64,000 nucleotides of DNA from positions 1 to 64,000 of the forward strand of contig CALBRH010000065.1 in assembly GCA_937899865.1 (NCBI GenBank), read 5' to 3'. A model generated the notes under the pieces. That model saw only the letters and a list, made by a program, of their open reading frames with translations. It ran no database searches and was not told where the DNA came from. The DNA comes from an uncultured euryarchaeote (GTDB lineage Archaea > Thermoplasmatota > Poseidoniia > Poseidoniales > Poseidoniaceae). This document shows positions 14,071 to 51,051 of the stretch, piece by piece (within the stretch, counting starts at the first letter, position 1; each line of letters begins with the position of its first letter). A program made the translations under genes and the position numbers.

Positions 14071-14143
14071 GAAGTAAACGGAAAAATATCCTCAAGAGCA
14101 AGAATTCATTAGTCACTTCTTTTCTCCCGTGTTAGGTGAAACC

Positions 14144-14647
14144 ATGAGTTCGACTACGAAAGGTTCGAAGGCAAGTAAGTTAACTGCAATTCCGGGAGTC
14201 GGTGCTGCTACTGCAAAGAAGTTAGTCGCCGCTAAACTTGACACAGTATCTAAAGTCGCTGCTGCTGGAGCGACAAAATTAGTAAAAGCAGGTATTCAAG
14301 CAGCATTAGCAAAGAAAGTTGCTGCGGCAGCAAAGAAACTTGACAAAGCATCTCAAGCGACAAAGAAAACCGCTACTGCGGCAAAGAAAGCAGCCAAGGC
14401 AGCACCAGCAAAAGCAAAAGCGGCTGCTAAGAAAGCCCCTGCTAAGGCTAAAGCTACCGCTTCCAAAGCAAAAACAGCAACTACAGCAGCTGCAAAGAAA
14501 ACTTCAGAGAAAGCCAAGAATTTGGCAGCTAAGGCTAAGTCCAAAGCCAAACCAAAGGCCAAATCAAAGCCGAAAGATGGCAAAATAGGTCCTTCAAGGA
14601 ACACGCCATTATCGTCATTGTCTTGGTTTAAGAACGCTAAGAAATAA
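14144..14647 (+). CDS. Helix-hairpin-helix protein with Lys/Ala-rich (histone H1-like) tail
   Basis: LTAIPGVGAATAKKL HhH motif and AKKAPAKAK-type repeats. An AGGTGA RBS precedes ATG 14144. Confidence 0.8.
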   Translation: MSSTTKGSKASKLTAIPGVGAATAKKLVAAKLDTVSKVAAAGATKLVKAGIQAALAKKVAAAAKKLDKASQATKKTATAAKKAAKAAPAKAKAAAKKAPAKAKATASKAKTATTAAAKKTSEKAKNLAAKAKSKAKPKAKSKPKDGKIGPSRNTPLSSLSWFKNAKK

Positions 14648-14873: not shown

Positions 14874-15962
14874 TCACTCAATACCAGATACGCTGGTAGA
14901 AGGAGTATTTTCTACTAATTCTTCAACAGGTTCATCCACTTCAGCAAGAGCGTTTCTCATATTTTGTGCCCTATTGTATACTTCACGCAATGTCTGATCA
15001 GAAATCTCAAGATATACTCTGGTGGTTGCAATACTACTGTGTCCAAGTAACTTTTGAATTGATACTAAATCAGCACCTCTCTCCAATAATCCTGTGGCAA
15101 AATTATGCCTAAGTACGTGAGGAGTTAACTTTCCTTTTGGTAGGCCCGCTTCAATTGCTAAGGCATCCATTAACCTTTGAACTCCACGAGGCTGTATTCT
15201 TCTTCCCGCTGAGTTTAGCAATAGTGCGTCAAATTCTCCTTTAACTCTAGAATCTCTTACTGGAAGCCAGGCATTAATCATGTTCAATGTTCGTTCTGTG
15301 AATAGGACTAGTCGATCTTTGTCACCTTTTCCACCAATTACTTTAGCTGATTTATCTTGAATATCAAGGTCGCTTAGGTTTAGGTTACATACCTCGCTCA
15401 CCCTAAGTCCAGTATCAAGCATTAAAGTAACAACAACCGATGCTACAGGATTTTCACTGGTTTTAGCAGCCTCTAAAACCATGGTTAACTCTCTTCGAGT
15501 AAGCGTTCTAGGCAATCTTTTCCCGGTTCTTGCACGAGTAAGGTGATCCGGCCATCTGTGGCCAAGCCACTTCAATAGATGACGAGCAGCAGCTAATCTT
15601 GCATTGTAAGTGGTTGGTCTTAAGTCGGAAAGGCTGTGTGTCCATAAATCAATTCGGCCATTTAGTGGCTCCATTCGTTGTGCTAAATCATAAATCGTCA
15701 TAGTATTATATTCAATTTCACTTAACACATCTTCGCCCGGAAGAGTTGTTTCAACATATGACCTCAAACCAGAAATGTAAGATTTCTGAGTATTTTCGGA
15801 TTTGTTTTCAGACTTGAGTTGTTTTTTGTAGCACTCTAACCAAGGAAGTTCTCTAAGATGAAATAGGCGATGAGGAAGAGAAACATCTTCGTCGGTCAAA
15901 CGCATTTGGCTAGGCCTAAGCGCCCTACGTTCTCGAGTAAAACTTCCTCTGCTGTTTTCCAT
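14874..15962 (-). CDS. xerA: Tyrosine recombinase XerA (XerC/D-like)
   Basis: Catalytic R (TGLRVSE), K (GGKGDKDR), HVLRH, LGHSSIATTRVY. A GGTGA RBS precedes ATG 15962 (ORF track extends to TTG 16043). Confidence 0.88.
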   Translation of the reverse strand: MENSRGSFTRERRALRPSQMRLTDEDVSLPHRLFHLRELPWLECYKKQLKSENKSENTQKSYISGLRSYVETTLPGEDVLSEIEYNTMTIYDLAQRMEPLNGRIDLWTHSLSDLRPTTYNARLAAARHLLKWLGHRWPDHLTRARTGKRLPRTLTRRELTMVLEAAKTSENPVASVVVTLMLDTGLRVSEVCNLNLSDLDIQDKSAKVIGGKGDKDRLVLFTERTLNMINAWLPVRDSRVKGEFDALLLNSAGRRIQPRGVQRLMDALAIEAGLPKGKLTPHVLRHNFATGLLERGADLVSIQKLLGHSSIATTRVYLEISDQTLREVYNRAQNMRNALAEVDEPVEELVENTPSTSVSGIE

Positions 15963-15963
15963 T

Positions 15964-16015
15964 GGCGTCACCGCCTCTCGCCGTAGCGAGTGTGCATCCC
16001 GTGCCCCGGAGGGCA
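15964..16015 (-). promoter_or_regulatory. Structured 5' leader of xerA: three tetraloop hairpins
   Basis: TGCCC-TCCG-GGGCA (16015-16002), CTCGC-TACG-GCGAG (15990-15977) and GGCG-GTGA-CGCC (15975-15964). GC is 40/60 over 15961-16020. Confidence 0.6.
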
Positions 16016-16073
16016 AGTAGAGGATATAGGTGTAAGATATCAAACCATCGGGATTTTAGTATCCATCAATGTA

Positions 16074-18326
16074 TCAATTCTTACCATAAGGAATCCATTC
16101 GGAACCATTCCACCACATAATGCTCTGATCTGACATCTGTCGCCATGAATAGCCATTTCCATCGGTCCATTGTTGCAATACTACAGGTTCTAATGTTGGC
16201 ATCGGTATTGCCGGTAGTGGCATAATTGGATCGTTGGATGTACTTTGCATTACGTTATTCTGTGGTGACGACTTCCTACTTCTAATTACCAAAACACCTC
16301 CAACAATAGCAGCAATAACCAAACCTAAAACCACGTATAGCAAGATATTATTTTCCTCAGATTTACTAGAGGTTGCTTCTGCCTCCTGCTGATCATTGCC
16401 ATTATCTTGTAATTCATCATTAGCGTCTTGTTCTAAAATTGTGCAACCAAACTCGTCAACTGCTTCGCCTGGTTTAGTATCAAGACAATTATCTGATGTG
16501 TCTAGAACTCCATCATTATCCACATCAATTTCTAAATTAGTTTGATTATTATCGTCAATTGGGTCAATAGTATTGTTAGTATTATCACTAGAATTATCGG
16601 TATTGTTATCTTGAGAATTATTATTTTGAGTATCATCATTTTGATCATCATTATCTGATGTTTCAGCAAGCTCTAGCGACACCGTCAATATTTGAGAAAT
16701 GCTACTCGAAATTCCAGAAGGGTTGTGAAGTAAACCGATTTCAAAAGATTCTATATTGTTCAATCCCCATGAAGATACCGAGATATCAAGTTTGTAGGTT
16801 GCATCGACATCAACAGGAAGTGAAACACCTTCATCGTCACATGAAGCAAATAAATCAACTATTTCGATATCGATGTTATTTGAACTTGTACAGAAAAGCT
16901 TCCATTCATTTTCAAAGTAGTTGAGTGAACTCAAAGACGAGGTCTCGATAATAGTCTCGAAGGTTTTGGTTTGATCATTCTGCTCAAAACTAATTTTATT
17001 ATCTAGAATTGAGATAATCTGCTTGCTTTCCAAAGGTGAATCAGACAATTTGAAGGAGGTGTTTGTCATTTGATACTTATCAAAAACCACACTTAGTTCA
17101 AGCATAAAGTCAATTATAGTTACATCATAATTGAGATAAATTTCAAAACTAAATTGACCATTTTGTCCGATTTGGGGATTCATTTGATTGAATTGAGACA
17201 ATGTAAGATTCATATTGTCGTAGATAATCCTTAAATCGATTACATTAGAATTTGTTAATAGAGTTAAGTTACTCGAGTAATAACCGCTATTAACAACTTC
17301 ATATGTTGAATTAAACCAAGCTCGCCCTAGAGTAAATATAGTTTCAATTTCATCAAGATTTTGTGAATTTCCATAGAAGTTCTCAGCATAGTTGAATTGT
17401 GAAGATGTTACAGAAACTAGCGGTGATACAATTTGCTCTATTGGGGAGATAGATATAGTGTAATATTCTTGATGAATATATACTAACTCTCCTTCATCAT
17501 TTTCATAGTATATTTCTACGTATAGAGGTTGAATTGATAATTTTCTTCCTTCTTCAAACTCTTCAGTGGGTATCAAAATCAAATTTAAATCAATGCTTTC
17601 TCCGCCAAAAACTTCAATTTCTGTTGTTTCAAAATCATTTTCACCTTCATCTATGCTTATTTCTTTCGAACTTCTCTCTATGATTGTGAAATTCACAAAA
17701 AATCCGTTATCAGAATCACCGGTATTGAGCATTGTGATGGTTATTTCTTTAGATTCACAACCACATACATAGATGAATTCAGAAGAATTATCTGTAGAAA
17801 TTTGGAAATCATATTCGTTGAATAATAACTTTTCAAGAGAACCAGACATTTTTGAACCATCAATTAAATCTAAATTTACTATAAGCGAATAGTTGCCACC
17901 CCATATGTCGGTATTGTAAGTATACAAAATAGTCAAAATAACGCCATTATCGGTAAAGTTTGCTTCATAATCCGTAGAATTGATTTCAAATGACAAAACA
18001 TCAGTAATTTCACCGTTATAGTATCCTTTAACATTTAGCAGGTCTATTTCATCGATACCAAAAATGCCGTCTGCAAACACTGAAATCTGCATTACTCTAT
18101 TTTCTACAAGGTCATTTGGCGACCAGATGTATTCTTGATCATCTTCGAATGAATCTCCTGGTCTGTGAACCTTGATTTCGAGAGTATCATTCTCACTTGA
18201 ATTATTTACAGAAGAATCAGAATTAAGATTAGAGTTGATCATTAAACTCGCTGAATTGGAAATTACAACTAATAGTGTTAGCCAAAGAACTAACCCTAAA
18301 CTCCCTCGACCCTTCATATATATCAA
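16074..18326 (-). CDS. Secreted single-pass surface protein with D/N-rich linker, TSP3-like repeat and Trp-rich cytoplasmic tail
   Basis: Signal peptide, DVDNDGVLDTSDNC, TM ILLYVVLGLVIAAIVGGVLVI, tail WTDGNGYSWRQM...WWNGSEW. Confidence 0.8.
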   Translation of the reverse strand: MIYMKGRGSLGLVLWLTLLVVISNSASLMINSNLNSDSSVNNSSENDTLEIKVHRPGDSFEDDQEYIWSPNDLVENRVMQISVFADGIFGIDEIDLLNVKGYYNGEITDVLSFEINSTDYEANFTDNGVILTILYTYNTDIWGGNYSLIVNLDLIDGSKMSGSLEKLLFNEYDFQISTDNSSEFIYVCGCESKEITITMLNTGDSDNGFFVNFTIIERSSKEISIDEGENDFETTEIEVFGGESIDLNLILIPTEEFEEGRKLSIQPLYVEIYYENDEGELVYIHQEYYTISISPIEQIVSPLVSVTSSQFNYAENFYGNSQNLDEIETIFTLGRAWFNSTYEVVNSGYYSSNLTLLTNSNVIDLRIIYDNMNLTLSQFNQMNPQIGQNGQFSFEIYLNYDVTIIDFMLELSVVFDKYQMTNTSFKLSDSPLESKQIISILDNKISFEQNDQTKTFETIIETSSLSSLNYFENEWKLFCTSSNNIDIEIVDLFASCDDEGVSLPVDVDATYKLDISVSSWGLNNIESFEIGLLHNPSGISSSISQILTVSLELAETSDNDDQNDDTQNNNSQDNNTDNSSDNTNNTIDPIDDNNQTNLEIDVDNDGVLDTSDNCLDTKPGEAVDEFGCTILEQDANDELQDNGNDQQEAEATSSKSEENNILLYVVLGLVIAAIVGGVLVIRSRKSSPQNNVMQSTSNDPIMPLPAIPMPTLEPVVLQQWTDGNGYSWRQMSDQSIMWWNGSEWIPYGKN

Positions 18327-50966: not shown

Positions 50967-51051
50967 GGCGAGGTTCCCGAGCGGTCAAAGGGGGTGGACT
51001 CAAGATCCTCTGCGTAAAGCTTCGCAGGTTCGAATCCTGCCCTCGCCACCA
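50967..51051 (+). tRNA. tRNA-Leu (anticodon CAA), intronless, CCA encoded
   Basis: Acceptor GGCGAGG/CCTCGCC-A-CCA, D-arm CCC/GGG, anticodon loop CTCAAGA, long variable arm, T-arm GCAGG-TTCGAAT-CCTGC. Confidence 0.95.

Follow-up and report, generated by a model that had tools for sequence, protein, structure and literature searches.

A conserved structured RNA leader precedes the xerA recombinase gene in Poseidoniales

Directly upstream of xerA in an uncultured member of the Poseidoniaceae lies what is very likely (probability of about 0.9) a real structured leader RNA, conserved across Poseidoniales and previously undescribed. Comparison of orthologous loci delimits a core kept throughout the order, which consists of a predicted first hairpin (H1), the unpaired sequence GGGAUGCAC, a predicted second hairpin (H2), and a Shine-Dalgarno (SD)-like GGCG. 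Such a leader would most likely control the amount of XerA made. All coordinates below refer to the window, i.e., the whole stretch of 64,000 nucleotides that was analyzed.

The leader sits in a 111-nt intergenic gap on the minus strand, between the stop codon of a 750-aa gene (16074) and the xerA start codon (Table 1). The original prediction had described three tetraloop hairpins at this site, in a stretch of 67% GC within an AT-rich genome, and this description proved accurate to the base. RNAfold returned exactly H1, H2, and a third hairpin (H3), which together span 16015-15964 (minus strand) directly 5' of the xerA AUG, with a minimum free energy of -26 kcal/mol and a z score of -2.3; the GC content of the leader is 0.67, versus 39.7% for the genome. 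The spacer between H3 and the AUG is a single nucleotide (A15963). Dinucleotide shuffles folded as well as the leader in 6 of 200 cases, and the predicted fold of this one sequence is suggestive, not decisive, evidence for a structured RNA. It is conservation with covariation across Poseidoniales, rather than the single-sequence fold, that sets the leader above chance. A long-range CGGG-CUCG pairing with the coding sequence, also drawn by RNAfold, was discarded because it is not kept in relatives. The 750-aa gene (16074-18326, minus strand), immediately upstream of the xerA promoter, encodes an Asn/Asp/Ser-rich protein with hydrophobic segments near its N and C termini and no Pfam match.

Table 1. 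Features of the xerA leader region in the window
Feature	Position	Strand	Basis
BRE-like purine-containing stretch CCCGATGG, just 5' of the TATA-like box	16045..16052	-	BRE role putative
TATA-like box TTTGATAT	16037..16044	-	fixed spacing to H1 in orthologous loci
Hairpin 1 (H1), U-GCCC(UCCG)GGGC-A; predicted 5'-terminal hairpin of the transcript	16002..16015	-	RNAfold
Linker C-GGGAUGCAC-A, unpaired stretch	16001-15991	-	predicted unpaired by RNAfold
Near-invariant linker GGGAUGCAC, after A16002 and C16001	15992..16000	-	conservation
Hairpin 2 (H2), CUCGC(UACG)GCGAG	15977..15990	-	RNAfold and covariation
Single nucleotide between H2 and H3 (A15976)	15976	-	
Hairpin 3 (H3), GGCG(GUGA)CGCC; part of the SD inside	15964..15975	-	RNAfold
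SD-like GAGGCGGUGA (GAGG plus GGUGA)	15968..15977	-	16S 3' end and SD enrichment
xerA-type tyrosine recombinase gene, 362 aa; ATG 15962-15960	14874..15962, stop included	-	Pfam and XerA relatives

The product of xerA carries a Pfam Phage_integrase catalytic domain (6.4e-38). Its best-scoring models are XerC and archaeal XerA, both under the equivalog cut-offs (187.7 bits versus 220 for NCBIfam XerA_Arch, NF040815), and its closest solved relatives are the XerA proteins of T. acidophilum (5HXY, the best match) and Pyrococcus abyssi (PDB structures 5HXY and 4A8E). A single xerA orthologue was found in 39 of 41 relatives, and the start assigned to the gene is supported by a conserved N terminus and by orthologue start codons at the same place. 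The first ~25 residues of the protein are basic in Poseidoniaceae, a feature that is not kept in the second large family of the order; a basic N-terminal peptide conserved order-wide was looked for among the orthologues and not found. Ahead of the core-binding domain lies an N-terminal extension of ~45 aa, which is absent from the Xer-like genes of other Thermoplasmatota. Xer-like genes outside Poseidoniales (L288-L309) have frames of mostly 270-400 aa that align only from about residue 100-150. The extension thus appears specific to Poseidoniales, as is the leader, and this single co-occurrence within one order is weak evidence for a link between XerA and its leader. In the window, xerA is monocistronic and the next gene (14129-14647, plus strand) is convergent. 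The latter encodes a protein of 172 aa, in which an N-terminal helix-hairpin-helix segment (Pfam HHH_5, 26.5 bits, under the cut-off of 27) precedes a long tail rich in Lys and Ala.

The upstream regions of 29 xerA orthologues contain the element with obvious compensatory changes. A covariance model, R1, was built and run on 151 Poseidoniales genomes, of which 117 gave exactly one strong match each; by family, matches came from 72 of 74 genomes in the family of the window (Poseidoniaceae) and from 44 of the 74 that represent the second large family. A further model, R2, likewise returned one match per genome and recovered the leader in 49 of the 101 genomes of the second family. With its filters off, R2 also gave weak matches at the expected site in four genera that had been model negative (g6, g9, g11, and g20). 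By eye, model-negative genera have H1, then (A/U)GGGAU with a few variable bases, and then H2. On account of these variants, the leader looks ancestral to Poseidoniales. The covariance-model search of 45 genomes from the other order of the class (the other two families) gave 0 matches, and R2 with filters off found no match beside the Xer-like genes of other Thermoplasmatota. Second weak matches in two genomes (G117 and G075, E of about 0.007) fall in coding-looking sequence and were taken as chance.

Linkage of the leader to the recombinase gene is strict. There is one copy in the genome of the window, and xerA lies downstream on the same strand in 69 of 69 genomic copies. A pattern scan of metagenomes, aimed at transcript-like contigs beginning at H1, yielded at least 120 matching stretches. 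Among the matches listed, the covariance model confirmed 22 of 80 metagenomic loci as true copies; of these independent copies, 22 of 22 immediately precede a same-strand xerA and none is at a contig end.

Covariation was assessed on 69 aligned copies comprising 68 distinct sequences. In this alignment, which was fitted to the model and therefore inflates pairing somewhat, 97.5% of H1 cells are paired across the 68 distinct sequences, with double changes in three of five pairs. The corresponding values for H2, where the second family is imperfectly aligned, are 87.5% and five of five, so double changes affect 8 of the 10 pairs of both hairpins. None of 500 column shuffles reached the observed covariation score, and sliding the 3' partners as a control lowered pairing from 88.9% to 24-57%. 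H1 was recovered independently, with zero broken pairs, by RNAalifold on a MAFFT alignment of 29 sequences. The stem of H1 occurs as GUCC/GGAC (37 copies), GCCC/GGGC (13), GCUC/GAGC (10), CCCC/GGGG, and UGCC/GGCA, with UNCG or GNRA loops on top in 40 of 69 copies, and that of H2 exists in more than 10 different versions. Cells of H2 hold 35 G.U combinations versus 6 A.C; this excess indicates that the functional strand is the xerA sense strand. Compensatory changes in H1 and H2, the single copy per genome, and the constant location 5' of xerA bear out the selection on RNA structure that the original prediction had proposed; it had named two outcomes that would speak against it, conserved translation from TTG 16043 and stems lacking compensatory changes; the TTG frame is not conserved, and both stems covary.

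No part of the leader is more conserved than the linker. The sequence GGGAUGCAC is exact in 63 of 69 copies, and GGGAUGCGC, GGGAUGUAC, and GGGACGCAG are the variants seen in this set; GGGA and G28 are invariant in alignment A1. XerA identity between the two families is about 50%, and the linker is thus more conserved than the protein. Since six genera of the second family have variant linkers (GGGAUUGCAG, GGGAUAGCC, and GGGACGCAG), the recognized core may be only (A/U)GGGAY. One sub-clade of this family (L103 in g11, L102 in g4, L026/L027 in g3, and L155 in g19) shows an H1 3' strand of GGGGAU followed directly by the conserved GGGAU. Two pairing registers are possible there for the H1 5' strand, which is impossible in the genus of the window. 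An alternative H1 register involving GGGAU was rejected as feasible in some lineages only.

The leader is also in register with its promoter. In nearly all of the 69 orthologous loci, a box reading TTTGATAT, TTGATAA, CTTCATAT, or CATTCAAG is found 22 nt upstream of H1, counted to its first G, and the sequence of the 21 nt between box and hairpin is unconserved. Archaeal TATA boxes are typically centered near -26/-27. Together with this usual geometry, the constant spacing places +1 at the base of H1 and favors transcription initiation at about 16014-16016, in agreement with the start near 16016 that had been predicted from the same box. Beside the promoter box, a C-G-R-T-G-G pattern is kept within the same genus, and the second family has GAGAAGC there. 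A CTTGG is kept between the TATA-like box and H1 in the second family only (L025, L029, and L099-L101, among others), about 5-9 nt before H1; it may represent an initiator, a promoter-proximal element, or a slightly earlier transcription start.

On its other side, the leader keeps its distance to the start codon. An ATG or TTG start lies 35-46 nt past the linker (GGGAUGCA) in 66 of 69 copies, with TTG in much of the second family. After H2, the copies have GAGGCGGUGA or GAGGCGAGG as the SD-like sequence, of which GGCG is kept order-wide. The 16S 3' end in the genome of the window is the standard anti-SD GGAUCACCUCCU, and GAGGT, AGGTG, and GGAGG are enriched 5' of ATG starts in this genome. The sequence GGATCACCTCCT occurs at two sites of the genome. 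At one of them, contig C23:1-50, it forms the 3' terminus of the 16S gene, and the sequence 3.5 kb downstream looks protein coding; at the other, C55:70276, the surroundings do not look rRNA-like.

As a unit, the three hairpins first described do not extend over the order: H1, the linker, H2, and GGCG do, and H3 is an addition at the family level. Most Poseidoniaceae genera carry H3, whose stem has a single compensatory variant (GGUG/CACC, seen in L066 and L067) and whose loop varies to GUGAA, GGGAA, and AAUUU. H3 is absent from two genera of this family (g14 and g16) and from the second family (f3), in which the SD is simply single stranded after H2. In silico, the stability of H3 is -6.0 kcal/mol at 37°C and -8.9 kcal/mol at 15°C, and the unpaired probability of its stem stays at or below 0.01 from 4 to 37°C and at or below 0.09 at 60°C, so that half of the SD is held paired from 4 to 60°C. 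This predicted pairing argues for constitutive damping of translation by H3 rather than for a thermometer.

As the original prediction had indicated, the leader belongs to no known RNA family in Rfam. A scan of the window with Rfam 15 at gathering thresholds found only a tRNA at 50967 and nothing at the leader, a relaxed scan of 15900-16100 gave only a subthreshold match to the C/D-box sRNA sR19 (RF01142; 17.4 bits versus a gathering score of 45, E = 0.03 on 201 nt), and a scan of L001 added nothing. The leader resembles sR19 in length, and GGGAUGCA and GGCGGUGA align loosely with the C and C' boxes, respectively. However, it lacks the RUGAUGA/CUGA boxes and a terminal stem, and its hairpins have no counterpart in C/D sRNAs. 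With boxes absent and the score under threshold, a C/D-box sRNA was rejected. A K-turn was likewise discarded upon inspection, as there is no GA on the partner strand. In the literature, we found no leader RNA described for XerA or any Xer recombinase and no structured RNA for Poseidoniales/Marine Group II.

Among characterized systems, the leader shares most with autoregulatory mRNA leaders, such as the archaeal L7Ae K-turn, the Methanococcus L1 site, and the operators of bacterial r-proteins and thrS. In common with these, it is a short structured 5' untranslated region (UTR) with a single target, in which covarying helices display conserved recognition nucleotides against the SD and the start codon. 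In contrast to these, it has neither a K-turn nor rRNA or tRNA mimicry, neither its complementarity nor its similarity to 16S rRNA exceeds that of shuffles, and its gene product is a DNA recombinase for which binding is only proposed. A stable hairpin at the predicted +1 is further reminiscent of the 5' stabilizer stem-loops of Escherichia coli ompA and of Bacillus subtilis aprE and ermC. These bacterial elements need no invariant single-stranded sequence, whereas the archaeal xerA leader keeps a 9-mer and a second hairpin. Another conserved structured nucleic acid motif found by Xer-type integrase genes is the bacterial STAXI motif, made of tandem pseudoknot repeats near XerDC-type integrase genes and possibly acting as single-stranded DNA (Weinberg et al. 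2010, PMC2864571). Unlike the leader, STAXI is not fixed in the 5' UTR, and no Rfam STAXI match was found at the xerA leader. By analogy, the leader would work most like an autogenous mRNA operator combined with a 5' stabilizer hairpin, and we place it in no described family.

The full arrangement, i.e., TATA-like box, 22 nt, H1, A(N)GGGAUGCAC, H2, SD-like (A)GGCG, and a start codon at a fixed distance, keeps the leader in fixed register with both promoter and start codon. It also places the leader where an autogenous operator is expected, on the mRNA of the regulator itself and at the ribosome binding site. The reading that we favor, at somewhat less than even odds, is a cis-acting 5' UTR of ~52 nt in which a 5' stabilizing hairpin is combined with a protein operator gating translation initiation. 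A stable hairpin at +1 is the classic protection against 5'-end-dependent decay, and H1, at the extreme 5' end, would shield the mRNA in this way. Given their generic tetraloops and freely changing stems, H1 and H2 look like scaffolds, which would expose the unpaired GGGAUGCAC as the operator for a trans-acting RNA-binding protein. This protein, sitting on the linker and H2 by the SD, 13-16 nt 5' of the start codon, would prevent or gate 30S binding. In Poseidoniaceae, H3 would add constitutive damping of translation, and the net outcome would be tight, low expression of the recombinase. Of the cis-regulatory candidates originally put forward, a cis-acting xerA leader stands and a protein operator is favored, and the thermometer is disfavored by an H3 that stays paired in silico from 4 to 60°C.

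A protein is the simplest partner for the linker because neither an RNA partner in the genome or in 16S rRNA nor an alternative pairing came to light. A search of the own genome (91% complete) for antisense partners of the linker (10-mer, at most 1 mismatch) retrieved only scattered sites in or near coding-looking sequence, none in a C/D-box context. With 16S rRNA, the best duplex reached -13.8 kcal/mol, within the range of shuffles (mean, -13.0 ± 1.6 kcal/mol), and no conserved alternative pairing of the leader was found. A global regulator would have several targets, and the one target per genome thus favors XerA itself, i.e., autogenous control, or a dedicated partner as the simplest candidates for the bound protein. 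That XerA itself binds the leader, either as an RNA-binding autorepressor or by using its own 5'-UTR RNA as a cofactor, is nonetheless doubtful. We know of no tyrosine recombinase acting as a specific RNA binder or translational repressor, and an order-wide RNA without a matching order-wide basic peptide argues against XerA as the binder. Alternatively, tertiary folding, a ligand, or the ribosome could be what keeps the linker invariant.

A less probable but serious alternative is a purely cis-acting, constitutive leader, whose 5' hairpin stabilizes the mRNA and whose SD hairpins fix translation at a low level with no trans factor involved. Recombinases are typically expressed at low levels, which such a device would deliver; in addition, H1 begins at the predicted +1, the three hairpins are very stable under their UNCG/GNRA caps, and H3 pairs half of the SD at all physiological temperatures in silico. 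Stability alone, however, does not explain a near-invariant unpaired 9-mer amid freely changing stems, and many lineages that keep the core lack H3.

Much less probable is a small riboswitch in which the linker and the helix ends form a ligand pocket that changes SD accessibility. The 5'-UTR site, conserved unpaired nucleotides between covarying helices, and a fixed distance to the SD would suit it. It would nevertheless be built of neither a multihelix junction nor a pseudoknot and carry generic, varying tetraloops. Moreover, we detected neither a conserved alternative pairing nor an expression platform, H3 is not order-wide, the leader precedes a single gene per genome without a metabolic link, and no Rfam riboswitch matched the window at 15900-16100 with E up to 10.

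We grant similarly small odds to a trans-acting small RNA or XerA RNA cofactor, released as the leader or as a processed 5' fragment and loosely comparable to the IS110 bridge RNA. The latter is a guide carried within a recombinase 5' UTR; it is much larger than the xerA leader, has two programmable loops, and serves a DEDD recombinase. The analogy lies in a recombinase 5'-UTR RNA that exposes single-stranded segments, and the exclusive, tight linkage to a recombinase gene and the invariant single-stranded 9-mer on show are in its favor. XerA is, in contrast, a tyrosine recombinase, and no target complementarity was found for the leader. There is neither a terminator nor a T-run on the 3' side of H3 in the window, no complementary target in the 91%-complete genome, and no inverted motif pair hinting at a DNA target site. 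Furthermore, relatives of XerA need no RNA for their action on dif (PMC2958812).

Less probable still is an element acting at the DNA level, be it a dif/XerA site beside its own gene, a transcription factor site, or folded single-stranded DNA. Its promoter-proximal position at a DNA recombinase gene is suggestive, and bacterial Xer modules with an adjacent site exist, as exemplified by difSL, which adjoins xerS. However, dif/Xer sites are defined by two conserved inverted arms of ~11 bp separated by a 6-8-bp spacer (PMC2958812), whereas the arms of the leader measure 4-5 bp and vary by compensation. Thermococcales dif sites, with 11-bp inverted arms and a 6-bp spacer, lie away from xerA (PMC2958812). 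Both the bias toward UNCG/GNRA loops and the preponderance of G.U over A.C are marks of an RNA. A search of the own genome for dif sites produced 101 generic palindromes, among which no inverted motif pair stood out.

An RNA thermometer, releasing the SD at higher temperature, has little to recommend it beyond an SD lying partly within H3 and adjoining the AUG: H3, with four G-C pairs and a GNRA loop and paired in silico from 4 to 60°C, lacks the weak pairs that thermometers usually have, and it is missing in much of the order. Finally, a coding origin, as an N-terminal extension translated from TTG 16043 or as an upstream open reading frame (ORF) from the AUG inside GGGAUGCAC, is negligible, since the TTG frame, open in this genome, meets an in-frame stop within the element at roughly half of the orthologous loci and is shifted by length differences in the loops and H2, which makes its openness here accidental, and the 9-codon ORF AUG CAC ... 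UGA is conserved in neither frame nor length and is lost in variant linkers without AUG.

Marine Group II is among the most abundant archaeal groups of the surface ocean, and structured cis-regulatory RNAs are, to our knowledge, scarce in archaea. Small, at about 50 nt, and well delimited, the xerA leader shows covariation of a strength that would warrant an Rfam-style family. Should XerA bind it, the Poseidoniales-specific extension of the protein and the leader would have arisen together, and a tyrosine recombinase would have acquired an unexpected RNA-binding role. The leader provides a concrete handle on the control of the chromosome dimer resolvase in an uncultured archaeon.
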